Of a stretch of DNA of 64,000 nucleotides, positions 14,441 to 41,366 are shown piece by piece. This stretch comes from an uncultured virus (IMG/VR IMGVR_UViG_3300044641_006529) (lineage: Duplodnaviria > Heunggongvirae > Uroviricota > Caudoviricetes). Where the stretch lies: the IMG/VR virus record IMGVR_UViG_3300044641_006529; one strand, 5' to 3'. Made by a program: the position numbers and the translations under genes. Under the pieces are notes generated by a model that saw nothing but the letters and a program-made list of their open reading frames with translations, was not told where the DNA came from and made no database searches. How positions within the stretch are numbered: the stretch's first letter is position 1; each line of letters begins with the position of its first letter.

Positions 14441-17400
14441 ATGACAAAAAAAACAAACGATGGTAAGCGTGGGGGCAATTTAGTTGGAAAGCCCCACAAC
14501 GACAAAAACGGAAACCCCGTAGGCGGTATTAAAGCTGTTGTAAGTGATGCTGGTGGCAAGCCCGTTGAGTTGGAGGGTGGAGAGGTTATAATTAACAAAG
14601 AGGCATCAAAAAAACATTGGAGAGAACTCAGCCGCATCAATCAGTCCGCTGGTAATGGCGTACCAATAAATGAGCCTATTGACCCACACGACCACGACCC
14701 CGAAGATTCATATAAAGATGGTGGCAAAATCGAATTTAATGCAAACGAAGTGCCGAACCGTTGGATTTTGTCGTATGCAGAGAAAATCAGAACAAAACAC
14801 CCCGAAATTTGGGATTTAGGTGGTAACATATTTGGCAACGAAGCATACAAAAATTTAAAGCGTGTTGCTGAACGTGGCTACTGGTTGGATAGTGAAGAAT
14901 GGATGTATAAAAAATGGCGTTCGTTTGTTGCTCGTCACAAGCAAGATTTCAGAATAGCTGGGGTTATTGCAATGTTAAAATGGGCAGATAAAGTTGATAG
15001 GGGCTGGTCTTATATGAAAGACCTTATCGAAGCCGAAATTAAAAAGCGTGAAGATAAAAAAGGTTTTGGTGGTATTCTTGGAAAAGCAAAGGACAAAATT
15101 AAGTCTAAAGCCAAAGAAACAAAGCGTAACATTGCGTTAGACGTAATTTACGATACAAAGGATAAGGTTAAAGCCAAAAAAGACATTAATTCACTACGGG
15201 CAGCATCAGAACTTGTCGAAAATAAATATTCGCAAGGCGGTGGTGTTGTTACCTACAAAAATAAGTTCAATAAGAAGTACGGCTTTGAGCCAAACGAAAG
15301 CCATAGCCTTGCTGAAATTGCTAAACTGACAAAGCTAAAGCTATCAGCACTACAAGATATTTACGATAAGGGTATTGGCGCATACAAGACAAACCCACAA
15401 TCTGTACGACCAAACGTTAAGTCCAAAGAACAATGGGCGATGGCAAGGGTTTACTCTGCCGTTATGGGTGGAAAGGCTGCTAAAGTAGATGCTAACGAAC
15501 TGGAGCGAGGCAAAAAATATGCAAAAGGCGGTTTAATTGCTCCTAATGGAAAACAATCTAATCTAACCCCCGAACAATACAAATTAGTACGAACTAAAGC
15601 ATTTAAAGATTGGTTTGGCGATTGGGAGAATGACCCTAAAAACGCTTCAAAAGTAGTTGATGAAAATGGAGAGCCGTTGGTTGTTTATAGGGGTATGCCA
15701 AAGAAAAGACGAGTTGGTAATGTTTTTAAATACAATGTTAACTTATTCGGTACAAAAGGTGTTGGAGGTAGGCAAACCAATAAATTCGCATTCTATTTTG
15801 CTGACAAAAAAGAAGTTGCTGAAAATTATGGTGAAAATTTATCTGATGACGATGGTGGTTATATTGTTAAACCATATTTCTTGAATATTAGGAACTTATT
15901 TGAAGCGTTTTCAAAAAAGAATCAACACGAAATAAAATTCAAAGAACTTTATGATTTGGCAAATAAAACGGGAAAGCCAATCTACTTAAAAAATTATAAG
16001 GGCGAGGTCGAAACTAATTCTAAGGGCAATCCAATTCAATGGAAAGACCAAAGTTCTGAATGGGTAAATAAATATGAACACGGAGATATAAATTCAACAT
16101 TTTCCTATTTTGCGGATTGGTCAAACAAACAAGGGAATCAATGGTTTTGGAGGGTATATTTAGAAACGTATTTAAATTACAATGGATTGGTATTTTATGA
16201 AGTATCACAAAATGCGGATTATGATGAAGTAGGTAATAGTATAAAACCAAAATATGGTGATGAATACTCTAAAACCTATGCGGTCTTTAAACCAACCCAA
16301 ATCAAACTTGCCGATGGCAGCAACACGACATTCAATGGAAGTAACCCCGATATTAGGTTTGCCGATGGTGGCGAGGTTTATCATTTAGGGGGCGGTATGA
16401 GCAAGCGTCTTGCGCCAAATGGAAAGCCCAGCAATTTAACACACGAACAATGGCATTTAGTTCGCACACCCGAATTTAAGGCGTGGTTTGGCGATTGGGA
16501 AAACTCACCCGAAACCGCATCAAAAGTAGTCGATGAAAATGGTGAGCCGTTGGTGGTTTATCACGCAACAAAAAATGAATTTACCGTTTTTGAAGTCGGC
16601 AAAAACACTATTGGAACATTTGGAAAAGGAATATATTTTGCTAATTCAAAAGGATATGTTTCTGTATATAATAGGGGAGAAAAACAAAGAATTTTATCTG
16701 TTTTTTTAAATATTACAAATCCTATAATTATAAATAATAATGAAATGCCTATTGGATATGAACGATATTCTCCCGAAAGGATGAATGAAAATAAAGGCAT
16801 AAGTAGAGATTTTACCTTAAAAGCAAAAGCGGAAAATTTTAATGGAGTTGTAGCAAGTGTTGGTTATAAAGATATTGAATATGTCGTTTTTGAACCTAAC
16901 CAAATCAAACTTGCTGACGGTAGCAATACGACATTCGATGGCAGCAACCCCGATATTAGGTACGAGCAAGGTGGTGGGTTAGAATTTTACGAAAGAACCT
17001 ATGCCGATGGCACAAAGCAAAAATTTACAATCAAAGAATATTCGGATATTGTAAAAAATCGTGAACTTGGGAAGGGTATGGGTGGCGAAGTTTATCATTT
17101 AGTGAGCAAGCACCTTGCGCCAAATGGAAAGCCAAGCAATCTAACACACGAACAATGGCATTTAGTTCGCACACCCGAATTTAAGGCGTGGTTTGGCGAC
17201 TGGGAGAAACTTGCTTATGCAAAAGTTAAAGATGCTGCAATGGACGAAATAACTTTGGAAAACCTATCAAAAGACATTTCTAAAGTTGTCGATGAAAATG
17301 GTGAACCTTTGGTGGTTTATAGGGGCTTTAATTCAAAATCAGATAAAGGCAATGTTTTCGGTTATGGAGTAAATAGGTTTAAGCATAATCGTAAAGCAAA

Positions 17401-20400
17401 TAGGTTTGCTCACTATTTCACAAAGTCTAAAATTGTAGCGCATAAATATGCTGAACAAGGAGAGAAAAAAAACGATACAGACATAATTGTAAAAGCATAT
17501 TTTTTAAACGCAAAAAAACCATTAGACTTAACTATAAAAAATCCTAAATATCCTAAATTTGATGAATGGGTGAAAGTTAGGGATTCTATATTTGAAAATT
17601 CTGACTATAAGTTAATAGAGCAACTTGAAAAAAGACAAATACCATTACACTCATATTTGTTTTCAAGCGTAATTTCTTCCAATAACGAAAATGATTTGGA
17701 TGAATTAAGCAGATTGAAAATAAAGGAGTTGAACGACAAGATACAATCCCAAGCATCCGAACAAATGGAAAGATATAAAAGTTCGGAGGACATAGACCTT
17801 GTTAATCTTGTTAGCCTTATTGGTAAAACATCATTGGATGATTTATTAGGCTCTGAATATAATAGCAACGAGGCATCATCAAGGCGTAAAGTATATGAAT
17901 GGTTTATAAATCAAAAATCATCAGACACTTTGGTTGTTGAAGACTTGGATATGATATTGAGAAATTTCATACTAAAGAACAAATATGATGGCGGTGTTTT
18001 CAAGGAATGGCAATTCGGTATTAAAACAGAAACAGACAAAGAAGTGTACTTTGTTTTTGAATCAAATCAAATTAAGTTAGCGGATGGCAGCAACACGACA
18101 TTCAATGGAAGTAACCCCGATATTAGGTATGATAATGGTGGCGTTATTTATAGTGCGAAACAAAAAGTGTTAAGTGGCGAAATTAATTCAGACGATGCGG
18201 CTATTTTAATTGATGAAAATGGTTTTGAGGTTACTGACGAATTGTATGACGAATTAAGAGAGGCTGAAAACATATTTAGGAATAAAGGCAGAGGGCTTCA
18301 AGTTGGAGATTTGGTAATAGTAAGGGGTAAACACGGACTTGATAATTTTGAGGGTAATTACAGAGGCACTATGCCCGATGGCAAATTAATAGTTTGGACA
18401 AAAAGCGGAAGTCAAATAGCAATCAGCAAAGACGAAATAATCAATTCTGTTTCGGATAAATATTCTGCTGGCGGGGAAGTAAAGTTGAACACATACCAAC
18501 AAAGGATTAATGCTAACTTGGAACAAATGGGAACACCATCGTCCGAGTGGAGTGCCGTACCGATTAGTGGCTTTGCTGATACCGATGCAGACGGCAAAAT
18601 TGTAACAATGCCACAATTCTCTTTTCCACAAGGATATGTTAAAGCACCTACATTATTTCCTAATAATCAAAGCGGAAATATGAATTGCGAGTTGTGTGGT
18701 CGGATGCCTATAAAAAATGCTTTTTACATACAAAACGACAAGAAAAAGTTTACATTGTTAGTTGGTTCAGAGTGCGTAACGCATTTCGGGGAGGGCGCAT
18801 CGGGTAAACAAAATGAACGCTCTTTTAAGGTTGCAAGAGCAATTATTTTGGACAATGATATGATTATGTTAAAGAGGTTTTTAAACGACAACTTTAAGAC
18901 AATTGTTGATATTGGTTATGGCAGAAAAAACGCTAAATGGAAAACCTTTTATACGCCATCAGACGAAACAAGAGATTATTTTGCAGAAATATCCAAACTT
19001 AAAACATTGGGTGTTTTTGATGTTCTTTATGATACTAAAAAGGCAAATAAATACGACAACAATGATACAATATACACCTACTACATACATAGTATAGTTC
19101 CTACTTTTGGTTACGAATCAATAAAAAAGGGCGGCTACGGATGGTCTGACGAAAAAATAGAAAAAGACTTATTGACTTGGTATTCACGCAATGAAAAATT
19201 GGCTATTAGCATATATACCGCAGTTGAAAAATTGTGTAAGGCTTTTCAAATTGATTTTGACGAAAACCAATATATTTATTTTAAACAATATTTAGATTCT
19301 AATAAAATGGAATTTGGAGGCGAACTTGCCAAAGGAATTAAAACTGAAATGGAGCATAGTGCAACCATAAATAACTTTAAACGCAGCAACGTTTCTACTG
19401 AACAAGTTGCAACAGCTATTGCAAAAGACCATTTAAAGGAGAACAAAAAATACTATTCTCGCTTGTCTGATGTTGAACGTAAAATGAAGCAAGGGGGTAA
19501 CACTTTTGTAGCACGTATGGACACGCCCGATGGCGAACAAACACGCCTAACGTATTTCCAGCAAAACATTGTACGAACAAAAGCATTTAAAGACTTCTTT
19601 GGTGACTGGGAAACGGCAGCAAAAAACTTTATTGCTGATGGGTATCGAAACTTTGATGTACACTACGCAAACGTATCAAAGGTGATTAATTTACAAACAT
19701 TAGAGCCTATTGTATTATTTCACGGCACTAACACGGATAAAGAATTTTACGATTTTGACGTGGCAACCGAAAAGCAAATGGGCAGACCCTACGCATATTT
19801 TTCATACGAAGAAAAATATGCGGAAAACTTTATGCAATACAGCCAACGAAACCAAGCTGGTGTGCCTCTTAAATATAAAGCGTTTATAAATGTTCGCAAA
19901 CCTTTATATGCTGTTGGTGAAAAGTTTGAATTGAAAAGAGAAAACGAAGATTATTGGTTCGATGTAGTTACAGACCGTATGATTTTTGACATTTTGGGCA
20001 ACAGCCCTAACCAACAAAAAGTTGATGATTATAAAAACGTTTTCCGAACTCAAATTTATGGTTTTCTTCAAAGGGTTTTTAGTGGTAACAAATTGCCTTT
20101 TTGGACGGCAATGGCAAGGGATACAAAAAGCGTGTTCAAAAGATTTTTAATGACTTACAAGTATGATGGCATTATTTACCACGAAGAAATTTCAAGCATT
20201 TTTGATGAATCAGACCCATCACAATATACGAAAGCAGTTACGGTGTTCAACGCAAACGATATTAAACTGGCAGACGGCAGAAATTTAACGTTCGACCCAA
20301 TGAAGTCAGACGTTCGATATGCTGATGGTGGAAACATAAATACAACCAGCGTTGAGGTTAAACCAGTAAGCGAGATTGACGCATTAGGCAAACAGCTTTT

Positions 20401-20524
20401 TGGTAATCAGTATGTTGAAAAAATTGGTATGTTTGATGGCGAAGAAGTGGAAATATCCGAACCAGCTAAACAAAACCATAATAACTTGTTCGTGCAAAAT
20501 CTTATCAATAAATTGAAGAAATGA
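14441..20524 (+). CDS. Large polyvalent protein with four ART-PolyVal-like ADP-ribosyltransferase modules plus DUF5824-like, Zn-ribbon and DUF5661-like segments
   Basis: Four VRT..FK.WFGDWE..KV....EP....(H/R)..QIKLADG-type units; KGIKTEMEH..AIAKDHL.E...YY; CELCG..VGSEC. Confidence 0.85.
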   Translation: MTKKTNDGKRGGNLVGKPHNDKNGNPVGGIKAVVSDAGGKPVELEGGEVIINKEASKKHWRELSRINQSAGNGVPINEPIDPHDHDPEDSYKDGGKIEFNANEVPNRWILSYAEKIRTKHPEIWDLGGNIFGNEAYKNLKRVAERGYWLDSEEWMYKKWRSFVARHKQDFRIAGVIAMLKWADKVDRGWSYMKDLIEAEIKKREDKKGFGGILGKAKDKIKSKAKETKRNIALDVIYDTKDKVKAKKDINSLRAASELVENKYSQGGGVVTYKNKFNKKYGFEPNESHSLAEIAKLTKLKLSALQDIYDKGIGAYKTNPQSVRPNVKSKEQWAMARVYSAVMGGKAAKVDANELERGKKYAKGGLIAPNGKQSNLTPEQYKLVRTKAFKDWFGDWENDPKNASKVVDENGEPLVVYRGMPKKRRVGNVFKYNVNLFGTKGVGGRQTNKFAFYFADKKEVAENYGENLSDDDGGYIVKPYFLNIRNLFEAFSKKNQHEIKFKELYDLANKTGKPIYLKNYKGEVETNSKGNPIQWKDQSSEWVNKYEHGDINSTFSYFADWSNKQGNQWFWRVYLETYLNYNGLVFYEVSQNADYDEVGNSIKPKYGDEYSKTYAVFKPTQIKLADGSNTTFNGSNPDIRFADGGEVYHLGGGMSKRLAPNGKPSNLTHEQWHLVRTPEFKAWFGDWENSPETASKVVDENGEPLVVYHATKNEFTVFEVGKNTIGTFGKGIYFANSKGYVSVYNRGEKQRILSVFLNITNPIIINNNEMPIGYERYSPERMNENKGISRDFTLKAKAENFNGVVASVGYKDIEYVVFEPNQIKLADGSNTTFDGSNPDIRYEQGGGLEFYERTYADGTKQKFTIKEYSDIVKNRELGKGMGGEVYHLVSKHLAPNGKPSNLTHEQWHLVRTPEFKAWFGDWEKLAYAKVKDAAMDEITLENLSKDISKVVDENGEPLVVYRGFNSKSDKGNVFGYGVNRFKHNRKANRFAHYFTKSKIVAHKYAEQGEKKNDTDIIVKAYFLNAKKPLDLTIKNPKYPKFDEWVKVRDSIFENSDYKLIEQLEKRQIPLHSYLFSSVISSNNENDLDELSRLKIKELNDKIQSQASEQMERYKSSEDIDLVNLVSLIGKTSLDDLLGSEYNSNEASSRRKVYEWFINQKSSDTLVVEDLDMILRNFILKNKYDGGVFKEWQFGIKTETDKEVYFVFESNQIKLADGSNTTFNGSNPDIRYDNGGVIYSAKQKVLSGEINSDDAAILIDENGFEVTDELYDELREAENIFRNKGRGLQVGDLVIVRGKHGLDNFEGNYRGTMPDGKLIVWTKSGSQIAISKDEIINSVSDKYSAGGEVKLNTYQQRINANLEQMGTPSSEWSAVPISGFADTDADGKIVTMPQFSFPQGYVKAPTLFPNNQSGNMNCELCGRMPIKNAFYIQNDKKKFTLLVGSECVTHFGEGASGKQNERSFKVARAIILDNDMIMLKRFLNDNFKTIVDIGYGRKNAKWKTFYTPSDETRDYFAEISKLKTLGVFDVLYDTKKANKYDNNDTIYTYYIHSIVPTFGYESIKKGGYGWSDEKIEKDLLTWYSRNEKLAISIYTAVEKLCKAFQIDFDENQYIYFKQYLDSNKMEFGGELAKGIKTEMEHSATINNFKRSNVSTEQVATAIAKDHLKENKKYYSRLSDVERKMKQGGNTFVARMDTPDGEQTRLTYFQQNIVRTKAFKDFFGDWETAAKNFIADGYRNFDVHYANVSKVINLQTLEPIVLFHGTNTDKEFYDFDVATEKQMGRPYAYFSYEEKYAENFMQYSQRNQAGVPLKYKAFINVRKPLYAVGEKFELKRENEDYWFDVVTDRMIFDILGNSPNQQKVDDYKNVFRTQIYGFLQRVFSGNKLPFWTAMARDTKSVFKRFLMTYKYDGIIYHEEISSIFDESDPSQYTKAVTVFNANDIKLADGRNLTFDPMKSDVRYADGGNINTTSVEVKPVSEIDALGKQLFGNQYVEKIGMFDGEEVEISEPAKQNHNNLFVQNLINKLKK
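16399..17205 (+). repeat. Near-identical ~100-bp direct repeats (16399-16500 and 17104-17205) at ART-module starts
   Basis: Shared CTTGCGCCAAATGGAAAGCC...GAATTTAAGGCGTGGTTTGGCGA; module ends also repeat near 16300-16357, 16900-16960 and 18070-18127. Confidence 0.85.
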
Positions 20525-22332
20525 GCAGACTATACGGGGCAGAGCGTGTAGCCCAAATAAGGGCAAAACTAAAAGAAAAATATCCGTACATTAAATTCTC
20601 TATTACAAAAGACGGATATAATGGCGTAAACATTCGTATCCTTGAAGCACCTATTGATTTTTCGGATGAAGAAAATCAACAAGCAAAAGCGGCTTTAAAA
20701 GATATTGAGGATATTGCAAGCGAGGGCGTTACATATCGTGAAACGGGAGATTATGGCAATCAACCCGATTTTTATGTTTGGGTAAGGGTTGGTACTTGGG
20801 ACAAGCCTTTTGTTTACAAGCCATCAGCAAGTCCTACTACAAGCGTAGGTGGTACAAAAAAGCCATTTACAAGAGGAACAACCAGCACCAACTACGACAA
20901 GGGAACGGTGGTTTTAGAGTGCAATAGCGGTTGGAAGGTTTACAAAAAAACATTGCCCGACAATAGGGTTGTATATAACGCTGTTAAAGACAAAGACGTA
21001 GCCTCAAATAAAGACGACTGGAACGCTATCAAAGGCGAAGTTTATGTAGAGGCTGGATTTAAGTGGGGACGTTTTGGAGCATTTGAACGATGGGGTGAAA
21101 TAGACGATAGCGTAGAAAGCATTGTGCTTAATGATTTGTGTGCTGTTTTCAAAAAATACTACAAAAAAACATCACAAATCACAGAACCAACAACAATACC
21201 AACAAAAGACGAATATGGGGAGTTTGTTTATGGTACAAACTGGAATGTTCCTAAAGAATATGGGCAACAATTAGTTGATGAATTTTATTTGACAAAAGAA
21301 AAGCCGTTTCTTGTAGCACAGACGGACGATATAAGAAATTTACAATATAGAGTTAGCTTTTCATTTGAGATAACGTCTGAACGAAAAAAAATATTTTATA
21401 TTAATGAACCAAATTTAGGGTATTCATTTTACATTAGCGACAAAGATGGCAAGTTTGAAGTGGGCAGAGTTGTTTTATTAGACCCCGATAGACCTCCTAC
21501 TATCAATAATTATTCTAATACAATATTTTATAATTTTATAAACTATTTTGAATTTGATAAGCCAGTAGAAATTACACAATTAAAAGAAGCAATTATTGAA
21601 GAAATATTAGATGGGCTTAAATATGAAAACAAATTAAAAGGTGAACCTATCGGTGGAGAAAATACCGCTTATCAAAATGTACCGCCCAATCCAAAACTTG
21701 AATACGTTAAAATTAATTGGGCAGAAGGGTTTGAGAGATATACAAGTCTGTTGCCTAAATCTTTCAATTCGTTTACAGCCGCTACTAAATTTATTGCAGA
21801 TAATATTGGAGAGATAGATGAATTGGGTTACGATAAACACGGTGTAGAATGGAAATGGACATTTGATGATACAGTATATTCGGATAGATGGGATATTGGA
21901 CAATCTTTAAACCCAAACACAATTTCTAACTTATGGGCTTATGGGTATTTGCAAAGATTATGTTTCGAAGCGTGGCGATTATCTTCAGTTTTTGACTATG
22001 TTAGAGCAAATGAATTTATTAAAAAAATAGGAAAAGATGGATTTGAATTAACTCCTAAACAGTTTGATGCAACCCTTCAAGATATTATTTCCTATTATCC
22101 TACTGATACTGGTCAGTTTGCATATAATTCTTCTGATGCTCGCTTATACGCATTTTTTGATGCCTACCCCGCGATATGGGAATTTTTTAAAGAACCTCAA
22201 CCACAGCAACCACAAGGCAATGTGGAACAAGAAACACGAAACCTCTTACGCTCCTTAGAATTGATAAGGGGCGATGGAACTAACCAAGAAATTGAACAAC
22301 TAATCAGAGCATTACGACTTATATTAAATTAA
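20521..22332 (+). CDS. Polyvalent protein with LPD29-like and LPD25-like domains
   Basis: IRAKLKEKYPYIKFSI at the N-terminus; VKINWAEG..SF..GYDK..YSDRWDIG internally. Confidence 0.6.
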   Translation: MSRLYGAERVAQIRAKLKEKYPYIKFSITKDGYNGVNIRILEAPIDFSDEENQQAKAALKDIEDIASEGVTYRETGDYGNQPDFYVWVRVGTWDKPFVYKPSASPTTSVGGTKKPFTRGTTSTNYDKGTVVLECNSGWKVYKKTLPDNRVVYNAVKDKDVASNKDDWNAIKGEVYVEAGFKWGRFGAFERWGEIDDSVESIVLNDLCAVFKKYYKKTSQITEPTTIPTKDEYGEFVYGTNWNVPKEYGQQLVDEFYLTKEKPFLVAQTDDIRNLQYRVSFSFEITSERKKIFYINEPNLGYSFYISDKDGKFEVGRVVLLDPDRPPTINNYSNTIFYNFINYFEFDKPVEITQLKEAIIEEILDGLKYENKLKGEPIGGENTAYQNVPPNPKLEYVKINWAEGFERYTSLLPKSFNSFTAATKFIADNIGEIDELGYDKHGVEWKWTFDDTVYSDRWDIGQSLNPNTISNLWAYGYLQRLCFEAWRLSSVFDYVRANEFIKKIGKDGFELTPKQFDATLQDIISYYPTDTGQFAYNSSDARLYAFFDAYPAIWEFFKEPQPQQPQGNVEQETRNLLRSLELIRGDGTNQEIEQLIRALRLILN

Positions 22333-22338
22333 AACCCG

Positions 22339-23829
22339 ATGGAAGAACTTTTATTAGATTTGGAGGCATTACGCTCGTCTATTTCCGACCCACGATTGAA
22401 TGATGAAATGCGTCAACGTATGCAGTTGCAAATTGAAAATGTAGAACAGCAAATACGTGAATTAGAAGCGCAACAGCAACAGCCAGCAGCCGCTACAACC
22501 CCAACTACACGCACAAGGCGTAAGCGCAGTAGTGCTGCACCACAAGTTCAAGATTCTGATAATGAATTTATGAATACATTGTTAGGCACTATTGAAACAC
22601 TATTAACGTCTAATGTTGGCAGCGGAATAGACACCCCCCAAGTGCGTAACATAATTCAAAATTATTTACGTACCGACAAGGTTAAGCTATCCGAACTGGA
22701 TAAATCTATTTTGGACGAGATAAAGAAAAATCAAATCCAACAACTACAAATACCCAATTTTAGCCAACCGATTCAAGTTAGTTCAGTCGTTTCTAAAATC
22801 CCGAACTTCTATGAGATTATTGACGATGTTTTAGCTGGAAACAATGTGTACCTAATTGGTGAGGCTGGGGGCGGTAAAACATACACGGCAGAAATGATTG
22901 CAAAGACATTGAAGCGAGAATATGTTACAATAAATTGCTCACAATATACAAGCCCATTGGAGATTTTAGGTGGTCAATCGGTAGAGGGATTTAAGCAAGG
23001 TAAACTTATTGATTGCTGGAGAAATGGTAAAATCCTAATCTTGGACGAAATGCCCAAACTGGATAGCAATACCGCTGGTTTATTCAACGATGCTTTAGCA
23101 AAAAGCAGTAAAACACGTCCAAGCGAAGCCGCTCTTATTAACTCAGCAAATGCAGAAGAACCACCAATTATGCGTAATAGCGACTTTGGTGTGATTGCAA
23201 CTGGTAACATTTATCCTAACGAACCACCAGCACCGCAATATCGTGGTAACAACCAGCAAGACTTGTCGTTGCTTGACCGTTTTTCGGGTAGTGTTTACTA
23301 TACAGAGTTTGACGGAAACACAGACGAAAACACCACACGCTTTAAGTTTTTATATGACTTTTTAGTAGGTAACTACTATCAATATATTCAAGCTAAAGCA
23401 TCGGGTTCATCGTTGCCTACGCCAACTGGTTTACGTACCATTATTGAACACAGAGGGATGAAAAACTTAGCGTTGGTCAGTTATCGTACTAACATTTCAT
23501 TCCGTGTTGGATTTGAGTACGAACTGGTACGTGAAATAGCAAGGCGACAAGGGGTAAACATAGACATAATTGGTAAAACGTTACTTAAAACGTTTAAAAG
23601 CTATATGGTTGCTTTCCGAAGCAATATGACGGTTTACAACGACCTTATAAATGAAACTGGATATACAGACGCTTACATTCAAAATTTAGCTGCAACCTCA
23701 ATTGATAGCATTTTAACTGGAGCAGACGGATTTTTAGATAGTCTTAACCCCAAAGTGCGAGAAAACGCAGACCCAATTTATCGTAGATACAGCGATTTTT
23801 ATGTGGCGCAATCTGTAAATGTCAAGTAA
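22339..23829 (+). CDS. MoxR/CobS-type AAA+ ATPase
   Basis: GEAGGGKT, LILDE, ATGN and LLDRF motifs. Confidence 0.88.
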   Translation: MEELLLDLEALRSSISDPRLNDEMRQRMQLQIENVEQQIRELEAQQQQPAAATTPTTRTRRKRSSAAPQVQDSDNEFMNTLLGTIETLLTSNVGSGIDTPQVRNIIQNYLRTDKVKLSELDKSILDEIKKNQIQQLQIPNFSQPIQVSSVVSKIPNFYEIIDDVLAGNNVYLIGEAGGGKTYTAEMIAKTLKREYVTINCSQYTSPLEILGGQSVEGFKQGKLIDCWRNGKILILDEMPKLDSNTAGLFNDALAKSSKTRPSEAALINSANAEEPPIMRNSDFGVIATGNIYPNEPPAPQYRGNNQQDLSLLDRFSGSVYYTEFDGNTDENTTRFKFLYDFLVGNYYQYIQAKASGSSLPTPTGLRTIIEHRGMKNLALVSYRTNISFRVGFEYELVREIARRQGVNIDIIGKTLLKTFKSYMVAFRSNMTVYNDLINETGYTDAYIQNLAATSIDSILTGADGFLDSLNPKVRENADPIYRRYSDFYVAQSVNVK

Positions 23830-23837
23830 GCCGTAAA

Positions 23838-25097
23838 ATGTTTCAGCAAAGGGATTTAGACGCAAATAATACAGCTTTCTATTTTAATTCATTAACGGAT
23901 ATTATAAATTTCGTCAATGATACTACACCTATTGCAACTGGAAATGCAAGGCGGGTTTTGCAGAGGCTTAATAGCGATGCGTATGTTAGGGATAACATAC
24001 GCGATGTTACGTGGTATGGAACAACTGATATTAATAAAGTTAGAAACCCAACTACCTTTTTATTTGAAAATGAATTAGAGAGGCAATTGGACGTTTTGCG
24101 AAGTCGGACTTATACAATAGAAGCACAAGATTTAGACCAAAACAAGCAAATAAAATTTACCGAAAAAGAAATAGGTATATTTTCGTTTGATTTAGCCTCT
24201 TTGGGATTAATACCAGTTTATGAATTTTACAGCCCTATTTTAAACAAAGTAGTATCGGGAAATGTAATTTTCAGCGAAAAAAACCAGCAAGGAGTTTTAA
24301 TATTTTATCATAAACAGCAAGATGAAATACCCAAACACCAAGTTGAATACAATTTAGGTATGGCTGGTTATTATAGCCCAATATTAAAGCGGGTAGTGGA
24401 CAAAAGTGAATTAGTAGAAACCGCAGATTTAAAATTAATATTTCCTTTCAAAGATGGAGTAGAACAACATATTGTTGAGCGTAGGCACAAATTGGATGCT
24501 AATGAAAACAAAATGTTTACTACAACATTTAAAAAGTCCTTTATTGAAATACCAAAAGTTGAAAAGCCAATGCCGCGAATTGATTTATTGATTGGCACTA
24601 ATTTTTCATCGAGTACAAGCGCAACAACGGAAATGATGTTTAATTCACTACCCGCAATTGCTCTTGCCGAAAAACTAACAACTTTGGGAATACCGTTTAG
24701 AATAATTGCTTGTTATGGTGGGGAAAGAACCAACAAAAACATATTTGGGTTTACATCACTTAAAAGAGAAGGTGAAATATTTAATAAGAATCAATTATCC
24801 ATCAATTTATCTGATGGTAGATATATTAGAGGTACACGCTTTAAAGCGGCAATTTGTATGCAGTTTTTAGGTGGCGTTAATGATAGGTATATTGATACGG
24901 ATATTAGCATACCTATTACTGACCCACAACGAATTAAAAATGCGTACATAAATTTTTTAGAAACATCAGACAATCCCGAAGATATACGTTCATCCGAAAA
25001 TCCACGCACTAAAATAGCCATTTCGGGTTCGTTAAGCCAAGCGCAAGCCCAAGCGGAATATGAAAGAATAATTCAAGAAATATCACGTATAATATGA
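23838..25097 (+). CDS. Probable vWA-like partner of the AAA+ ATPase
   Basis: Position directly after the MoxR-type ATPase; degenerate strand-loop IDLLIGTNFSSS followed by alpha/beta pattern. Confidence 0.5.
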   Translation: MFQQRDLDANNTAFYFNSLTDIINFVNDTTPIATGNARRVLQRLNSDAYVRDNIRDVTWYGTTDINKVRNPTTFLFENELERQLDVLRSRTYTIEAQDLDQNKQIKFTEKEIGIFSFDLASLGLIPVYEFYSPILNKVVSGNVIFSEKNQQGVLIFYHKQQDEIPKHQVEYNLGMAGYYSPILKRVVDKSELVETADLKLIFPFKDGVEQHIVERRHKLDANENKMFTTTFKKSFIEIPKVEKPMPRIDLLIGTNFSSSTSATTEMMFNSLPAIALAEKLTTLGIPFRIIACYGGERTNKNIFGFTSLKREGEIFNKNQLSINLSDGRYIRGTRFKAAICMQFLGGVNDRYIDTDISIPITDPQRIKNAYINFLETSDNPEDIRSSENPRTKIAISGSLSQAQAQAEYERIIQEISRII

Positions 25098-25396: not shown

Positions 25397-26469
25397 TGGG
25401 GGCTTTATTAACAGCACTTGATGTAAACGAATCTGCACAAGATAAACTTAGCACAGCTACATTCCAAGCTGAGAAGCTGATTATTGGGCTAATGAATATA
25501 TATCAAAACCTCCCCAGTAATAATAACAAAAAAGAATTATTAGCTAATACTATTGCGGAAACAACAAGAATGATGCTGTTAAAGGTTCGGCAAGAATTAG
25601 AAATGCCTAATCAAACTACGCCTACTCAAACTCAACCACAGCCAACCAACGAAGTCGAAAGGTCAATATATATAGATGGTGAGTTTTTTCAAAATTATGA
25701 GGGTGAATTTGGATATATTGATATTTTAACGCAAAGGTTTGGCTCAACTAAATATTTAAGCCGTGAAACAGAATTGCCAAACGGAGATTATAGACTTGAC
25801 ATTATTAGTGGAGAGGTTTTTATATATGGGCAAAAAACGCCCTTACGTAATAGGATTCCTAAAACTTATGGGACAGATTTAATGTTTGAATTGTTTTTGC
25901 TTGATTATCAAATTGTAATTAGAAAAGATGCTGGCGCACTCAGTTTGATTTTAACAAGCAACATAATTTCAAATACATATTTAATTAAAGAAGCTGCAAA
26001 GCGTATTTCCTTTAAATTGTATGATTATTATACATTGGAAGGTTTTGCTTATCCAAACTATGTAAGTCCGTCTATGGATGATATACTTGAACCTAAAGCT
26101 ATTGCCGAAGAAATTGATATGTTTATAAAACAATACGAACAAGGCACACTAACATCAACGGCAGCAACACCTACACCAGCGGCAATAACGCATACGCCAC
26201 CGCCACCAGTTCAACCCCCAGCGGTAACACCACCTATGCCACCAGTTACAATGCCTACTCCAACAGCACCACCCATCACGGACACGCACACGGGGAATAC
26301 TGGTTTTTATGACGAAGAAAACTACGAAACGTGGTCAACTACGCAATTGCAAACAGAAATTGAAGATATTAGAGGCGCACTTGAACTATTTGAACCAAGT
26401 GAACCCGAATATCAAGAACTATCATACAGACTTGATATAATTGAACAAATACTTGAAAATCGAAATTAA
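25396..26469 (+). CDS. Hypothetical protein with Pro/Thr-rich linkers
   Basis: Long coupled ORF. Confidence 0.7.
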   Translation: MGALLTALDVNESAQDKLSTATFQAEKLIIGLMNIYQNLPSNNNKKELLANTIAETTRMMLLKVRQELEMPNQTTPTQTQPQPTNEVERSIYIDGEFFQNYEGEFGYIDILTQRFGSTKYLSRETELPNGDYRLDIISGEVFIYGQKTPLRNRIPKTYGTDLMFELFLLDYQIVIRKDAGALSLILTSNIISNTYLIKEAAKRISFKLYDYYTLEGFAYPNYVSPSMDDILEPKAIAEEIDMFIKQYEQGTLTSTAATPTPAAITHTPPPPVQPPAVTPPMPPVTMPTPTAPPITDTHTGNTGFYDEENYETWSTTQLQTEIEDIRGALELFEPSEPEYQELSYRLDIIEQILENRN

Positions 26470-26471
26470 AA

Positions 26472-29159
26472 ATGGCGACACAAAATACTAAGCCCGTATC
26501 CCAAGCGGTAGAAAATAAGACAGAAGCTATTGCTGCATTGGAGCGCAAGATAGCAGAAGCTAAAAGCGAGATAGCGAAAAAAGCCCTAAAAGAGAAGCTG
26601 GAACGCCTAAAACAAGAGGCGCAAGATAGTGATGTAGAGGCTAATAAATTAGCTGTCGTATTACTTAAACAGCGTAAAAAGATTAAAGAGTTGGCACAGA
26701 AAGATTTTGATGCGCTAATTAGACGTTTGGCAAATAAGCCTCAGTATTCATTCCTCAAAAATTACACACGGGATGAAATTGTACGTGATATGAGCCGCAA
26801 AGCAAAACCAGTTGGATGGCGTTTTAAGGGCAAAAACAACTATAAAATACCCAGCAAAAAACAAGTTACCGAAGGGGTTAAGAAGGGCAATGTGTATTAC
26901 GAAAATCGTCCTAAACAATCCGATGTTAGCTTCCCAGCGCAGTTAGGCAAAGGCGGTGGTATTAATATGAACAATAATTGTATAGTAGCGATTGTTCAAA
27001 TGGTAGATAAAATCAATGAGGTAAGAGATTATTACATTTACGATAACAAACTTATAATAATTTTACAAGACGAATTAATGGTGTATGCTGTTGAAATGGC
27101 TAACGCAAATTTATCTAAAATAAAAGGCTGTTCAGAAGTCGTAGATGGCGAGTTTGAAATTGGATATGATGAAAATTACCAAACATTGATTTTGCCTCTA
27201 AAAACCGATAACGTTTCAGTTGGAAAATTTAACAAAGGCGGTGGGGTTGATTTAACAAAAAATGATATTGAAATATTAGGAGTGCCGAGAAGCCGAATTA
27301 CTGAAAAAGAATGGCAATCTATTTTAAGAATGGCTAAATATCAGAATGGCGCAACATTTATTCTTAAAGACGATAGAGGAATAGACGTTAAACCACAAGT
27401 TGAATACGAATGGTATATAAAAGAAAAATATGCAAATGGCGGTGGGGTTGGTTATGACTATTATCCTCAATACGATATAAACGAAGAAGGTAATTTTGCA
27501 GCAACTATTGGCGGTAAAAACTACGAAATAATTTATCGGGATGATGTAAGCCAAATGTATGACTTGTTTCAAGACGGCAATATGATTGCAAGTGATACTT
27601 ACATTCGCAACCTAATGAGTTTTGATAAATATGACACGGACGATATGCCAGTAATTCGCACCCAGTTTGAGGAAGATTATTTTGAATATGGCGATGGTGG
27701 TAATATTCCATACGTGGTTTGGACATCAAAAGACGGCAACACAAGGCAGCTATACAAAACATACAAATCAATGAAAGCAGCTAAAATTGCTGCAAAAAAA
27801 TTAATTACGAGTGGCGATTATGAAGAAGTAGGAACAAAGCCTAAAACCTCTTATGAAAAAAACGGTTTTTATGCTGATGGTGGCGAAATTGACACGGACG
27901 ATAAAGTTTGGAAAGTTTATTCACTTGGTAGTCGTTGGCAAATAGGCAAATCAGATGGAACTATGTTTGGTAGTTTTTCAAGTAAAGATGAAGCAGAAAT
28001 GGAGGCGTTTCAAAAAAATATGCACATTTCTAATATTTATCCTTATTTCGCCAAAGGCGGTAAAGTGAAGCCAAAAATGGTTCGTTCCCAGTTTGAGGAA
28101 GAAGAATTTGAGTATGGGGGTGGCGGTTCAATTGATGATGTTTTTAATGAACAAGATTTTGATTCTCTAAAAAAGGGTGATGAAATAACAATTACCTACG
28201 AATCGGGAATTTCTCGCAGCAACAACGTTGAGTTGAAGGTGCAAAGCAAAACAACGGTTGGGAAAGGCAAATCATATCAATCTGAAAAAATAACTTTCAT
28301 TAACAAAGCAAATCCGACTGGCGTAAGATATTATGCCTATAAAAGAGTAAACGGAAATATTGGGTTTGCAATTGGAGATATGGCAATTTGGGGCGTTAAG
28401 CAGCAAAATAATTATGGCAAAGGCGGGGTAATTAAATATTACGATGAATCCAATGCTTACAGATTAGGTTCTCCAGCATCAATGCCAAAAAATTTACAAG
28501 CAAAAATTAGTTATGATTTGTTGCGACCATACTTTGCTGGAAATTTCGGTTGGAAGTATGATAAAAAAATGCACGATGGCTATTTGTTTAACCTTGACGA
28601 TTACGATAAAGAGTTTATTGCTAATCAAAACATTAAGCTAAAACAAGGCGAAAAAATATACCGATATACAAACGAAAGGGCAGCAATAGGTGGATACGTT
28701 TTCTTTATCAAAATAAACTGCGACAAAGAACTAATTTACTTTATGCGAATAGCTGACTTTGGCGATGAATCTATTGAGTTTGACACCAAAGGCATCAAGC
28801 CAACATTCCTAAACCTTATCAAAAACGAAGGGGGAAAAAGCTATGGCGATGGTGGTGAGGTAGATTTTGATAATATTGATATGCCAATTATTCGCACTCA
28901 GTTTGAAGAAGAATATTTTGAGTATGCCAAAGGCGGTAATGCTGGAGAGCCACACAGAAAAGAACAAATGGGTAAAGGTGGTGGTGTTTCTACAAAATTC
29001 AATTATATAATTGTCCTTATTAAAAACGAGGGCGAAGAAAACGAAGAAACATTTACTGTTGCTCAATTTGTAGCTCAAGGTGATGCTTTTATTGCCGCAC
29101 GCGCTTTAAGCGATAGCCATTATAAAAGCAATATCAAATACCGTGTACTCTATAAATAA
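26472..29159 (+). CDS. Polyvalent protein of small domains separated by [FYM]xxGG motifs
   Basis: Eleven xxxGG junctions; three copies of R(T/S)QFEE..FEY..GG. Confidence 0.8.
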   Translation: MATQNTKPVSQAVENKTEAIAALERKIAEAKSEIAKKALKEKLERLKQEAQDSDVEANKLAVVLLKQRKKIKELAQKDFDALIRRLANKPQYSFLKNYTRDEIVRDMSRKAKPVGWRFKGKNNYKIPSKKQVTEGVKKGNVYYENRPKQSDVSFPAQLGKGGGINMNNNCIVAIVQMVDKINEVRDYYIYDNKLIIILQDELMVYAVEMANANLSKIKGCSEVVDGEFEIGYDENYQTLILPLKTDNVSVGKFNKGGGVDLTKNDIEILGVPRSRITEKEWQSILRMAKYQNGATFILKDDRGIDVKPQVEYEWYIKEKYANGGGVGYDYYPQYDINEEGNFAATIGGKNYEIIYRDDVSQMYDLFQDGNMIASDTYIRNLMSFDKYDTDDMPVIRTQFEEDYFEYGDGGNIPYVVWTSKDGNTRQLYKTYKSMKAAKIAAKKLITSGDYEEVGTKPKTSYEKNGFYADGGEIDTDDKVWKVYSLGSRWQIGKSDGTMFGSFSSKDEAEMEAFQKNMHISNIYPYFAKGGKVKPKMVRSQFEEEEFEYGGGGSIDDVFNEQDFDSLKKGDEITITYESGISRSNNVELKVQSKTTVGKGKSYQSEKITFINKANPTGVRYYAYKRVNGNIGFAIGDMAIWGVKQQNNYGKGGVIKYYDESNAYRLGSPASMPKNLQAKISYDLLRPYFAGNFGWKYDKKMHDGYLFNLDDYDKEFIANQNIKLKQGEKIYRYTNERAAIGGYVFFIKINCDKELIYFMRIADFGDESIEFDTKGIKPTFLNLIKNEGGKSYGDGGEVDFDNIDMPIIRTQFEEEYFEYAKGGNAGEPHRKEQMGKGGGVSTKFNYIIVLIKNEGEENEETFTVAQFVAQGDAFIAARALSDSHYKSNIKYRVLYK

Positions 29160-29168
29160 TTAATTACT

Positions 29169-32100
29169 ATGAAACTCTTTACAAAAGACATCGACAAGAA
29201 GCTGTTTGCTCAATATTCAATGGGCAGCAACTTAGAAAACCAAATGGTGGTTGCTAAAATATTTAATCCTTATGGGCGTGGTGTTTGGTATCTATTAAAT
29301 AGCGACCCTAACGACCCCGATTACTTATGGGCTATTGTTAACCTTTTTGAAGTTGAAATGGGCAGCGTTAGTCGTTCAGAACTGGAATCTATACTTGTGC
29401 CTCCTTACAGATTGCCTCTTGAAAGAGATTTGTACTTTACTCCCGTAAATGCAAAGGTTCTATTTGATGGCTTACTACAAGGGAAGCACTATTCAAAAGG
29501 TGGTAGTGTTGATGAAACAATTGGTTTTTTAAGACTTAACAATATAGATAAAATCGGAACGGTTGATTATGGCATAATCTCAACACCAATAAATGAAAAA
29601 CAACATTTTGAACTAAAAAAAATAGTTGAAAATAATGCCCTATATGATACCGTAAAAAAGTATAGGTTAGAAATCAAATATTATAAAAATGGTTATGCTC
29701 GGAGGGATTCTAATGAATATTTAAGTATTCTTAGTGAAAATCAAGGCAAAGCAATAATTGATTATTTTAAATCCTCAATGGCTAAAGGCGGTATGATGCA
29801 ACACGGTTTAAAAACTGGGGATAAAATTGTTGGCAAAAGCGGTTCTGATGGAATTAAAATTTATAATAAACAAAGCCGTGAAGCTGGAAGTGTAAATATA
29901 TCAACTGGGCAGCGAAATACGGATAAATATGCAAATGGGGGTGACCTAAGTAATGTATTCAACAAGTGGAGAGTTGTTGAGGAACAAGTAAAGTTTGCTG
30001 TTTTGCGAAATATTGGTATTGATAGGGCAACTGAACTTAATAGACGTTATGACCGCTATCCGATTAGACCATATCAACTACTTGAAAGAGCCGTTTACAG
30101 TAATTTGCTGTTACTTGACGAGATTAATAATGACGTTATAAATAGCGCGATTGAAGCCTCTATCGATACAGCCGATATGGAAGAAGTTGGTAGTAGCGAT
30201 TTTACGTATGTAATGAAGTCTATGTTAGACGGTGCTGGGCTTGAAACAGCATTTGTAAATAATTCGCTTAAACGAGTGGACGCTAATGGCAATCCATTGA
30301 ATTTGCAAAACGAATTGCCAACAAAGACTATGTTTGCGGATGGTGGTTCAATAGGTTATGAACACGATGTAAATATTGTAACAAATAGAGAGGGCGAAAA
30401 CTATCTGTTTCCAAGCAATAAGGAAGATAACTCAATGGGTGTTTTGTTGAAACGTGGTGGCAGAGCAAGTGAAGTTTTAAAAGAAACAGATTATATTTCC
30501 AATCGTAAAATTGATGCAATAATTATTGACGGCAAACGCTACGATGGCAAAAGCATAGTTGATGGCGTTTATTTGCGAAAAACAGCAAGTGGGAGTGCGG
30601 ATATGCCACAGCAGTCAGCAGCACCAGTTGTTGAGCCAAGCAAACCCAAATCAGCAAAGCCAACACGTAAGCCAAAACCTATGGGTGATGGTAGCGAATT
30701 GCTGAATCCACAATTTGCTGAAATAGATGCTCAAATGTTTGAACGCAGATTTGGAGTGTCGGTTAAAGTTATAGCAGATGAACTAAAGGGCTATGATAAA
30801 AATAGCGTTTTTCTTGGGGATGCGTGGCGAACTTATGAATCTGTAAGCGGCAAGGAGGTAAGCAATACTGAAGTAGGGGCGTTTTATAAATTTTTGTTAG
30901 CTGGATTTAGTTTTTACAATGTAAAACTCGGCAAGAGCAAGGCGATTAAGTTGCCAAACTTTGACGAACAAGATTTGGATAACGGACTACGTATTCACAT
31001 TAAGCCACAATATGCGAAGCCTTTGTCAAAAGAGGGTTTTCTGAGTATGAAAAACATTCTCGGCACAGACGTATTACGCCCTATAATGATGGGCGTTTAT
31101 TTTGACGATGGAAACCTAATAGGAACTGATGCACACAAACTTGTGATTATTAAGCAAACCCAAAGCGAAAGCGAACTAAAGACTATATTTAAAGACCTTA
31201 TTAAAAAAGAGGTAAATAAGTATGCTGGGGGTAGAGATGCTGATAAAATTATTGAAGAAAAAGTAAATGCAATATTTGATGGTGGCTTGGATAAAAAGCC
31301 AATTAATTTTACAACTGGTATGTTTGATGATGGAACTAAATATCCAAACTATCAAGCTGTTATACCTAAAAACACCGAATATTCAGAGAGCGTATCAATT
31401 CAAGCATTAATTGACGCTTGTAATGGGGTTTATGAAGCGCAAAACAACTGCTATGAAATAATTAAAAACATACTCTTTAATTTCATAAATGGACAAAATG
31501 AACAAGAAATTGCATTTAACTCAGAATATTTATTAGATACATTACAAGTGTTGCAAGTAAATGGAGCAAAAAGCGTTAAATTAAGTCCTTCTACCCCAAC
31601 AAGAGCGTGTGGTATTTATGCCGATAACGGCAACTACGCACTAATAATGCCCACAATGACAAGTTACAGCGTAAACGCACCTTGCAACTATTCTATTCCT
31701 ATGAAAACCACAGAAAGCAATTTTATTCCAAGCGACAGCGTAATCGCTAAGTTTAAGTACAAAGCTGGTGGTCAAATAACCGAAGCACAAAGGGAGAAAA
31801 TAGAAACTGTTATGGACGAGTACGGTCAAGGCAAACTTAACATTGGTTTATCCGAAGCGGGTGTTTCTAAAATAGAAAAAAAAGCTAACGGGGGCGATGT
31901 TGCTAAATCTTATGAAGTTGAATATGAAATTAGTGGCAAAAAACACAAGTCAACTTATCTCCTATATCAAAGCGATAGGGTAGAGAAAATGCTTCCACCC
32001 GATGCAAAGATTATCAGTATAAAAGAAACATCAAAAATGGCTAAAGGTGGCGGTGTTGCATCTTTTAAGGAAGGCGATATTGTGAAGTCAAAAGACCCAA

Positions 32101-32291
32101 AAGACGGCTACGGAACAATTACGGAAATAGTAGGCAGCGTGGCATTAGTTGATTTTCAAGATAAACTTTCAAATCACATAAGAAAATTATCCTTTTCTAA
32201 TTTGGAAAAAGTTACTATAAGTCAATTTAAAAATAGATTTCAAAGTAGGGCTTATATGAAGCCAAAAGATGGATGGAAGCACAAAAAATAA
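29169..32291 (+). CDS. Polyvalent protein: DUF2958-like N-terminus, partial DnaN/beta-clamp-like region, KOW/SH3-like C-terminus
   Basis: KIFNPYG..WY..EMGSVS..ERDLYF; RPIMMGVYF..GTDAHKL..YPNYQAVIP..IAFNSEYLLD..LIMP. Confidence 0.75.
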   Translation: MKLFTKDIDKKLFAQYSMGSNLENQMVVAKIFNPYGRGVWYLLNSDPNDPDYLWAIVNLFEVEMGSVSRSELESILVPPYRLPLERDLYFTPVNAKVLFDGLLQGKHYSKGGSVDETIGFLRLNNIDKIGTVDYGIISTPINEKQHFELKKIVENNALYDTVKKYRLEIKYYKNGYARRDSNEYLSILSENQGKAIIDYFKSSMAKGGMMQHGLKTGDKIVGKSGSDGIKIYNKQSREAGSVNISTGQRNTDKYANGGDLSNVFNKWRVVEEQVKFAVLRNIGIDRATELNRRYDRYPIRPYQLLERAVYSNLLLLDEINNDVINSAIEASIDTADMEEVGSSDFTYVMKSMLDGAGLETAFVNNSLKRVDANGNPLNLQNELPTKTMFADGGSIGYEHDVNIVTNREGENYLFPSNKEDNSMGVLLKRGGRASEVLKETDYISNRKIDAIIIDGKRYDGKSIVDGVYLRKTASGSADMPQQSAAPVVEPSKPKSAKPTRKPKPMGDGSELLNPQFAEIDAQMFERRFGVSVKVIADELKGYDKNSVFLGDAWRTYESVSGKEVSNTEVGAFYKFLLAGFSFYNVKLGKSKAIKLPNFDEQDLDNGLRIHIKPQYAKPLSKEGFLSMKNILGTDVLRPIMMGVYFDDGNLIGTDAHKLVIIKQTQSESELKTIFKDLIKKEVNKYAGGRDADKIIEEKVNAIFDGGLDKKPINFTTGMFDDGTKYPNYQAVIPKNTEYSESVSIQALIDACNGVYEAQNNCYEIIKNILFNFINGQNEQEIAFNSEYLLDTLQVLQVNGAKSVKLSPSTPTRACGIYADNGNYALIMPTMTSYSVNAPCNYSIPMKTTESNFIPSDSVIAKFKYKAGGQITEAQREKIETVMDEYGQGKLNIGLSEAGVSKIEKKANGGDVAKSYEVEYEISGKKHKSTYLLYQSDRVEKMLPPDAKIISIKETSKMAKGGGVASFKEGDIVKSKDPKDGYGTITEIVGSVALVDFQDKLSNHIRKLSFSNLEKVTISQFKNRFQSRAYMKPKDGWKHKK

Positions 32292-41322: not shown

Positions 41323-41366
41323 AGGGGGCGAGGCGTATCTAACTATTTGCCTTGCCCCTTTTTTTT
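41323..41366 (+). terminator. Rho-independent terminator after the candidate capsid gene
   Basis: GGGGCGAGGC...GCCTTGCCCC followed by T8. Confidence 0.85.

Follow-up and report, generated by a model that had tools for sequence, protein, structure and literature searches.

The 64,000-nucleotide stretch of DNA considered here (the window) belongs to an uncultured virus of the Caudoviricetes (IMG/VR record IMGVR_UViG_3300044641_006529) and makes up 64 kb of a contig of ~75 kb. Three of its 69 open reading frames (ORFs) are very large, and their predicted products, designated P0001, P0002 and P0003 (Table 1), are punctuated by a pentapeptide of the form [FYM]xxGG. What is this peptide doing there: does it delimit domains, join them, or mark the places where they are cut apart? 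The three proteins are polyvalent proteins, that is, strings of small, independently folding effector-type modules. The peptide is a junction motif, found in the unstructured linkers between modules and under purifying selection at the protein level. It is also where modules are inserted, deleted and exchanged, close relatives differing by whole modules, and it is a trait of one uncultured clade rather than of polyvalent proteins in general.

The first-pass annotation of the window, made from the sequence alone, listed 27 such pentapeptides in the three ORFs, and all 27 are present at the expected places. The strict pattern has 11, 11 and 6 matches in P0001, P0002 and P0003, respectively, adding YHLGG and FEYGG; one of the listed peptides, LGKGG, is outside it. 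Residue shuffles (5000 per protein) gave means of 1.42, 0.96 and 0.74 matches and maxima of 7, 7 and 5, and none of the 5000 reached the observed number for any of the three. Motif density is 28 in 3962 amino acids (aa), or 0.71 per 100 aa, in the three ORFs vs. 16 in 16519 aa (0.097 per 100 aa) in the other 66, a 7.3-fold difference. The degenerate DNA pattern WWBGCNRANGGNGG has 15 matches in the window, with 0.53 expected (100 shuffles), and 11 of the 15 are inside the three ORFs.

The full consensus covers eight residues, K-[YMF]-A-[KDN]-G-G-[GE]-[VIL]. Among 314 instances in 38 proteins, the first position is K in 38%; the second is Y, M, or F (43, 37, and 20%); the third is A in 58%; and the fourth is K, D, or N (35, 15, and 13%). 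After the glycine pair comes G (35%) or E (18%), and then V (44%), I (25%), L (10%), or M (7%). The codons used for the motif glycines vary (GGT, GGC, GGG, and GGA), so that conservation is at the level of the protein and not of the DNA. A DNA-level cause, such as a recombination sequence or a Shine-Dalgarno-like pause, was ruled out on these grounds, the codons varying while the peptide stays constant. Internal translation starts at the Met variants were also ruled out: Tyr or Phe occupies the position at 17 of the 22 strict sites in P0001 and P0002, and at 63% of the 314 instances.

The assignment to the polyvalent class follows from the combination of unrelated effector-type domains. P0001 has four ART-PolyVal units together with DUF5824 and DUF5661; ART-PolyVal, the marker domain of the class, scores 192.4 bits against a Pfam curated cut-off of 31.2, and the DUF5661 match (residues 1631-1681) is sub-threshold. 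P0003 combines DUF2958 at its N-terminus (residues 4-92) with a clamp-like region at approximately residues 620-815. P0002 itself matches no Pfam family, and its homologues do have LPD11. Modules found additionally in relatives of the three proteins include LPD11, LPD23, NUDIX, GNAT, TopoIB, PolyA_pol, and Eco57I methylase. The ART units of P0001 extend beyond the Pfam ART-PolyVal model at both ends, by some 45 conserved aa on the N-terminal side (LAPNGKPSNLT.EQW.LVRT.EFK.WFGDWE) and by a tail on the C-terminal side (IKLADGSNTTF..SNPDIR[YF]).

Where domains can be recognized, the motifs are at their edges. Each ART unit of P0001 has a motif before it (in the case of unit 3 the degenerate GKGMGG) and ends in NPDIR[YF]xxGG; DUF5661 lies between MEFGG (residue 1623) and MKQGG (1682); and DUF2958 in P0003 is followed by YSKGG (108). 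The clamp-like region is within a 470-aa segment of P0003 free of motifs, from FADGG (389) to YKAGG (864). The same segment holds a Pro/Lys-rich linker without a motif, and the motif is therefore not needed for simple tethering. For a wider comparison, 81 Pfam envelopes in 49 proteins were used, with one best stretch per family per protein; left out were rows in which no stretch passed, secondary families that overlapped another (for example DUF3990 and additional acetyltransferase models), and the incomplete ART matches of the relatives P0074 and P0086. Only one of 417 motifs is inside an envelope, compared to 54.0 ± 6.6 expected (2000 randomizations, minimum 31). The median distance from a domain end to the next motif is 9 aa, and it is exactly 9 aa for all 33 ART envelopes; LPD11 has motifs within 4-7 aa on both sides in four of five cases.

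An AlphaFold model of P0002, built on a 37-row alignment and with a mean predicted local distance difference test score (pLDDT) of only 57.8, puts all 12 of its motifs between folded blocks, in coil with pLDDT below 50 (379 of 895 residues, or 42%). The 334 distances between successive motifs peak sharply at 60-70 aa and dip at 30-50 aa, with lesser peaks at 20-30 aa and below 10 aa. Local alignments among relatives also tend to end at motifs, 587 of 1591 ends being within 5 aa of one (229 ± 18 expected), and 39 of 105 for the three window proteins (16.4 expected), in a test that is partly circular in that the motif itself is a shared word. All four lines of evidence bear out the first-pass suggestion that the motifs bracket domains, and have the same motif recurring between the would-be products, not inside them, as in a polyprotein.

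The 20-30 aa peak of the spacing distribution is explained by an acidic-aromatic mini-module, MP[VI]IR[TS]QFEEE.FEY, present in three copies in P0002, each with a junction motif at its end, and also in the relatives P0004, P0040, and P0059. It resembles a short linear interaction motif. A different use of a similar sequence is seen in the 451-aa protein encoded at 42370-43725, which has an Arg-rich N-terminus, a C-terminal hydrophobic helix, and ~12 tandem motif-like Y(A)DEGG units; these resemble the junction motif but form an array instead of separating domains.

Comparison of close relatives shows module gain and loss falling at the motifs, as expected if these are joints for adding domains, another first-pass proposal. 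P0003 and its relative P0017 are 91% identical over residues 1-115, unrelated over 116-386, and homologous again (69%) exactly from FADGG; they also differ by the presence or absence of a 52-aa module whose bounds are KANGG and MAKGG. P0002 and P0004 are 95% identical as far as LGKGG, with high identity returning at YGGGG, and the P0002 module that follows LGKGG is found in P0004 some 350 residues further along, with motifs on both sides.

All 35 P0002 homologues in the full-length range have the motif, at 0.47-1.56 per 100 aa, as do 21 of 22 shorter ones, in some of which it is directly behind an N-terminal hydrophobic helix. Four small relatives (P0043-P0046, ~230-315 aa) have this arrangement: a hydrophobic helix, then FADGG, FEDGG, or MASGG, then one or a few modules. 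With a single ART unit as query, 13,726 relatives were found among 1.84 billion representatives; the best 150 of these have 906 motifs, with 149 expected from composition, and 26 of the 150 are at chance level. ART tails located solely by the upstream NPDIR anchor fall into two sets. In motif-rich proteins (n = 243) the tail reads NPDIR[FY]xxGG, with G in 92% at position +3 and 91% at +4, I, V, or L in 74% at +6, and later positions near background composition. In motif-poor proteins (n = 82) it reads NPDIRFS, with G at just 9 and 16%. The NPDIR[FY] tail itself is thus kept even in lineages without the GG motif.

Most other ART-PolyVal polyvalent proteins lack the motif. It is enriched in 43 of 77 metagenome loci (loci being ranked by similarity), but in only five of 79 bacterial or archaeal genome loci and four of 78 IMG/VR loci; viral contigs searched with P0003 gave four pattern matches, none of which was confirmed. 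The searches for relatives found no cultured phage close to the clade. A Methylophilales phage protein shares P0002 residues 554-637, exactly one inter-motif segment, and the motif is absent there. Two phage records with a GC content of 0.67 (G008 and G007, loci L301 and L302) carry three YA[DN]GGL[LVI] sites, spaced by 72 and 141 aa, toward the C-terminus of a 1080-aa protein.

As to the function of the junction peptide, the reading preferred here, tentatively and as somewhat less than an even proposition, is that the motifs are processing sites cut in trans by a phage protease. The giant proteins would then be precursors, cut at the motif into many small products, and the shared junction would let any module adjoin any other with folding and processing undisturbed; such a plug-in junction would explain the mosaic architectures. 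Proteolytic release of domains from polyvalent proteins has been proposed before, in the text of Iyer et al. (2017, PMC5512222). The first-pass annotation had suggested cleavage of the GG↓X type (the arrow marking the scissile bond). Its placing of the sites at inter-domain junctions stands, and cutting there is plausible; the protease implied by that type of site was not found. No peptidase family of any kind is among the Pfam matches (E ≤ 0.01) of the 69 window ORFs, which include no adenain/Ulp1-like or C39 clan peptidase, nor is there one in 53 motif-rich proteins. The window result covers 64 kb of the ~75-kb contig, and a gene of this kind may lie beyond it.

The best candidate for a trans-acting enzyme is a stand-alone protein with the zincin signature HExxH and downstream acidic residues (H183-E184-x-x-H187, E201, D205, N207). 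In a scan of all window ORFs, HExxH was found only in this protein, encoded at 45975-46760, besides two HEQWH strings in the N-terminal extensions of ART units. None of the six residues named varies among 26 sequences of 28-67% identity, and across 122 sequences their conservation is 97% or higher, so that an invariant HExxH is combined with a downstream acidic ligand as in zincins. The family is large (1263 clusters) and conserved to an unusual degree (the best 120 being 61-73% identical). Leads from the ESM Atlas are all to metallopeptidases and all sub-threshold on a bar of 0.9: DUF4344 at 0.87, M48 at 0.82, and an M78-containing cluster with a TM score of 0.75 by row. A homologue is encoded in G001, a complete related viral genome of 76.7 kb in which five polyvalent ORFs hold 61 of the 71 motifs. 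If the HExxH protein is a zincin, the scissile bond may be before a hydrophobic position (x↓[YMF] or [GE]↓[VIL]) and not after GG, a placement taken solely from the general P1' preferences of zincins.

The HExxH gene and the motif also tend to occur together. Among 50 viral records selected by ART, the two with an HExxH homologue are both motif-rich, and of 50 chosen solely by the HExxH protein, 44 have the motif DNA pattern. All 11 of the latter that are at least 90% complete do (40, 11, 11, 11, 28, 5, 2, 7, 34, 5, and 13 copies, on one strand), while a reversed-pattern control gave 0-2 copies in these records, and complete records without the HExxH protein (n = 16) have 0-4 copies of the pattern. 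That this protein is the processing enzyme is nonetheless considered doubtful.

A number of observations weigh against processing in general or this enzyme in particular. The association just described is confounded by common descent, all of the motif-rich genomes being related. It also has exceptions: G007 and G008 have no HExxH gene, yet their three YA[DN]GGL sites look genuine, and the complete record G004 encodes a weakly motif-bearing protein and no HExxH homologue. Searches of Pfam, PDB sequences, and PHROGs gave nothing significant for the HExxH protein, and its family has no Pfam match below E 0.03 (the G001 homologue matches SprT-like at E 0.19), so its candidate status as a peptidase comes from the signature motif and the sub-threshold leads. 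There is no peptidase among 25 neighbor gene families enriched at motif-positive loci, and the contrast expected of embedded peptidases, with motif-poor relatives having them and motif-rich ones not, was not found: a metallopeptidase-like Pfam match is present in one of 18 motif-poor relatives and in none of 34 motif-rich ones, which says little either way. The putative structural proteins of the window have no motif; at this site, then, the enzyme would have no general role in head maturation. Lastly, products of cleavage are so far unobserved, and no proteome is available because the searches turned up no cultured relative.

The junction could instead be an uncleaved hinge, in which the aromatic or Met residue caps the preceding module, Gly-Gly acts as a swivel, and the hydrophobic position starts the next module, so that the giant proteins remain intact as beads on a string and neighboring modules are kept from disturbing each other's folding. 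This, the main rival, is rather unlikely. Intact function has been reported for the virion RNA polymerase of phage N4 and for several polyvalent proteins of plasmids, and Iyer et al. (PMC5512222) give examples of polyvalent proteins transferred or packaged without processing. The coil location of the motifs in the P0002 model, where the next strand often starts with the +6 hydrophobic residue, fits a hinge, as does the lack of a recognizable protease near these genes; behind the N-terminal helix of the small relatives, the motif looks like a plain spacer. Simple spacers, on the other hand, rarely keep five or six positions when the domains they separate share just 25-40% identity. Three features suggest recognition rather than tethering: conservation over eight residues, the P0003 linker free of the motif, and the lack of GG where other lineages have orthologous junctions. 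The junction peptide, possibly along with the acidic-aromatic mini-module, might also be a docking motif bound repeatedly by a partner. Candidate partners are a factor in packaging or ejection that would unfold, load, or thread the giant proteins, or the MoxR-type AAA+ ATPase and DUF7192 protein encoded between P0001 and P0002, which are likely a chaperone-type pair and not a protease. Homologues of the MoxR gene are found at 13 of 52 motif-positive loci and the DUF7192 gene at seven, always directly downstream of the MoxR gene, with neither at any of 182 motif-negative loci. A DUF7192 model (pLDDT 66) has only weak Foldseek matches, nearly all to vWA domains and including the NorD vWA domain bound to NorQ (E 0.05-1); the tandem Y(A)DEGG units of the 42370-43725 protein also count in favor of docking. 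But the co-occurrence may be synteny within one clade, many motif-positive loci have no such pair within 10 kb, the vWA assignment is below significance, and nothing links the motif itself to MoxR or vWA-like proteins. Docking is judged improbable.

The remaining two possibilities are much less likely still. The peptide could be a functionless scar of recombination, with modules spreading as cassettes together with their flanks or by way of GGNGGN microhomology. The module swaps and the 52-aa indel, with motifs precisely at their limits in protein pairs otherwise 69-95% identical, and the clustering of alignment ends at motifs are what such a process would leave behind. The variable motif codons are not, and neither is the fact that ART tails retain GG at over 90% when identity in their domains is down to ~50% and neighboring linker positions are free to change; besides, homologous recombination needs more than fifteen degenerate bases. 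A scar is very improbable. An encapsidation or address signal, one per module, was the other suggestion of the first-pass annotation, which took the modules to be packaged cargo, and transfer along with the DNA is the prediction for polyvalent proteins as a class (Iyer et al., PMC5512222). The motifs are between modules only, never at the free ends of terminal ones: the first module of a protein lacks one in front and the last lacks one behind, which would leave one product per precursor without an address. Nor is there a MuF or MuF_C head anchor in the three giant proteins, the 66 other window ORFs, or 34 motif-rich relatives (MuF_C is found in four of 18 motif-poor ones). An address signal is the least probable of the explanations, and neither it, nor packaging as cargo, nor the first-pass idea of two address codes found support.

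Several known systems offer comparisons. One likeness is to the polyvalent proteins described by Iyer, Burroughs, Anand, de Souza, and Aravind (2017, PMC5512222), giant mosaics of ART-PolyVal, LPD, NUDIX, GNAT, methylase, and helicase modules, for which those authors drew the analogy to RNA-virus polyproteins and ascribed processing to embedded zincin domains, present in 36% of the proteins. The proteins here differ from that set, as its published text presents it: the search for embedded peptidases was negative, the candidate enzyme has a gene of its own, the junctions carry a defined peptide peculiar to the clade, and MuF anchors are missing. The words "linker" and "glycine" do not appear in the main text of that paper, and its passages describe no junction motif, though the supplementary alignments may show one; literature searches found no account of such a motif. 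Both the class and proteolytic release as an idea were known before; the clade-specific junction motif would be the new element.

Head and ejection proteins processed by prohead proteases (T4 gp21; phiKZ, 201phi2-1, and SPN3US, for the last of which see PMC10052503) are similar in that a single short consensus recurs many times over, in several different proteins of the same phage. These include injected enzymes such as the T4 ADP-ribosyltransferase Alt, and the consensus sites end in Glu. Prohead sites are shared with capsid proteins and are cut by serine proteases of the assemblin/HK97 fold, in contrast to the motif-free putative structural proteins here; in addition to the lack of any peptidase match in the window, the HK97-type protease family PF04586 (S78) has no match in four related viral records. 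A Gly-Gly pair with a preceding hydrophobic residue recalls GG↓X processing by the adenain/Ulp1-like enzymes of adenovirus and African swine fever virus and by C39 peptidases. The reference sequences in that case are (M/I/L)xGG↓x and the double-glycine leaders, with the hydrophobic residue at P4, whereas the conserved Y, M, or F of the junction motif, three residues before the first G, would be at P5. In operation, the arrangement is also like that of MARTX toxins, with effector modules on one chain, unstructured linkers containing a short site, and shuffling of modules, a likeness that implies no homology. MARTX toxins are secreted by bacteria and carry an internal cysteine protease domain that cuts after Leu.

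Table 1. Positions in the window of the giant ORFs, their ART units and junction motifs, and the other genes discussed.
Feature	Position	Strand	Details
P0001	14441..20524	+	2027 aa; ART-PolyVal x4, DUF5824, DUF5661; 11 strict motifs
YKDGG	14711..14725	+	P0001 residue 91
YSQGG	15227..15241	+	P0001 residue 263
YAKGG	15518..15532	+	P0001 residue 360
ART unit 1	15533..16357	+	P0001 residues ~365-639; YAKGG and FADGG at flanks
Double junction FADGG + YHLGG	16358..16393	+	P0001 residues 640 (FADGG) and 647 (YHLGG)
ART unit 2	16394..16960	+	P0001 residues ~652-840 (Pfam ART-PolyVal 698-832); flanks FADGG/YHLGG and YEQGG
YEQGG	16961..16975	+	P0001 residue 841
ART unit 3	17078..18127	+	P0001 residues ~880-1229, long insert; degenerate GKGMGG before; end NPDIRYDNGG
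YDNGG	18128..18142	+	P0001 residue 1230
YSAGG	18461..18475	+	P0001 residue 1341
MEFGG	19307..19321	+	P0001 residue 1623; directly 5' of DUF5661
MKQGG	19484..19498	+	P0001 residue 1682; directly 3' of DUF5661
ART unit 4	19499..20317	+	P0001 residues ~1687-1959; flanks MKQGG and YADGG
YADGG	20318..20332	+	P0001 residue 1960
LPD29 protein	20521..22332	+	603 aa; LPD29 N-terminal; no junction motif; start overlaps P0001 stop by 4 nt
MoxR-type AAA+ ATPase	22339..23829	+	AAA_5, 55.9 bits vs. cut-off 22
DUF7192 protein, probably vWA-like	23838..25097	+	23.2 bits vs. cut-off 27
P0002	26472..29159	+	895 aa; ~9 small modules, 12 motifs between (11 strict + LGKGG)
LGKGG	26943..26957	+	P0002 residue 158; end of 95%-identity block with P0004
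FNKGG	27228..27242	+	P0002 residue 253
YANGG	27429..27443	+	P0002 residue 320
Mini-module, three copies	27645-27701, 28068-28127, 28881-28937		P0002 residues ~392-410, 533-552, 804-822
YGDGG	27687..27701	+	P0002 residue 406
YADGG	27870..27884	+	P0002 residue 467
FAKGG	28047..28061	+	P0002 residue 526
FEYGGGG	28107..28127	+	P0002 residues 546-552; high P0004 identity restarts
YGKGG	28413..28427	+	P0002 residue 648
YGDGG	28842..28856	+	P0002 residue 791
YAKGG	28923..28937	+	P0002 residue 818
MGKGG	28968..28982	+	P0002 residue 833
P0003	29169..32291	+	1040 aa; 6 strict motifs + degenerate KANGG at residue 905
YSKGG	29490..29504	+	P0003 residue 108; 91%-identity block with P0017 ends just past
MAKGG	29778..29792	+	P0003 residue 204
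YANGG	29928..29942	+	P0003 residue 254
FADGG	30333..30347	+	P0003 residue 389; P0017 homology restarts
YKAGG	31758..31772	+	P0003 residue 864
MAKGG	32037..32051	+	P0003 residue 957; downstream edge of 52-aa module absent from P0017
HExxH protein	45975..46760	+	261 aa, HEFCH; H183-E184-x-x-H187, E201, D205, N207; candidate stand-alone zincin-like metallopeptidase

The genes of the window run in one direction, phage-like, at a GC content of ~0.36. Upstream (5') of the giant ORFs are genes for a DnaB helicase, a PD-(D/E)XK nuclease, RecT, methyltransferases, RusA, and an SLT lysozyme; downstream (3') are genes without assignment and others for tail-fibre-like proteins. Between the giants are the genes for the LPD29 protein (domain score 36.2 bits, Pfam cut-off 27), the MoxR-type ATPase, the DUF7192 protein, and two proteins without assignment. 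The left end of the window (277-1888) encodes a protein with a Beta-lactamase2-family domain (E 3e-9) and a GDSL-type lipase/acylhydrolase; homologues of the latter are found in G001 and at three motif-positive loci.

Two putative structural proteins (40566-41303 and 46767-47855) start with long low-complexity stretches of acidic and aromatic residues (D/E with Y/F), which may be what the first-pass annotation took for a separate motif in the structural proteins. The ESM Atlas, consulted for the 40566-41303 protein on the question of a capsid type, gave a poor model and no usable match. Adjacent proteins encoded at 47857-49044 and 49044-50507 are alike over ~65 aa at the N-terminus and differ from there on, as paralogous fibres or spikes sharing one anchor would. 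Small proteins with a hydrophobic helix at the C-terminus are encoded one after another (41352-45000 and 35815-36669); among them is a P-loop protein with only weak HerA/TrwB-type matches (E 0.003-0.005) that is 70% identical to one in locus L082. Four related IMG/VR records (G053, G065, G075, and G100) are assigned to the class with inverted terminal repeats. The clade may have a tailed or a membrane-containing virion.

Polyvalent proteins are a major reservoir of uncharacterized phage counter-defense and host-takeover functions, and how their domains are delimited, released, and exchanged has been conjectural. The junction peptide provides a way, from sequence only, of splitting thousands of these proteins into their natural modules, most of which, at typically 60-70 aa, fall in no known family. 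It also makes the long-standing proposal of processing concretely testable, and would explain the extreme mosaicism of the proteins. In its most specific form, which is unlikely to be right in every part, the proposal is that an abundant clade with genomes of ~50-100 kb makes its host-takeover and anti-defense proteins as polyproteins, that a dedicated stand-alone zincin cuts these at K[YMF]A[KDN]GG[GE][VIL], and that any module inserted between two such sites is released. If cleavage is confirmed, this would be a polyprotein strategy in a DNA phage, with its own pair of protease and site. If the motif proves to be a universal delimiter, these genes would amount to a self-indexing library of hundreds of effector domains without known function.

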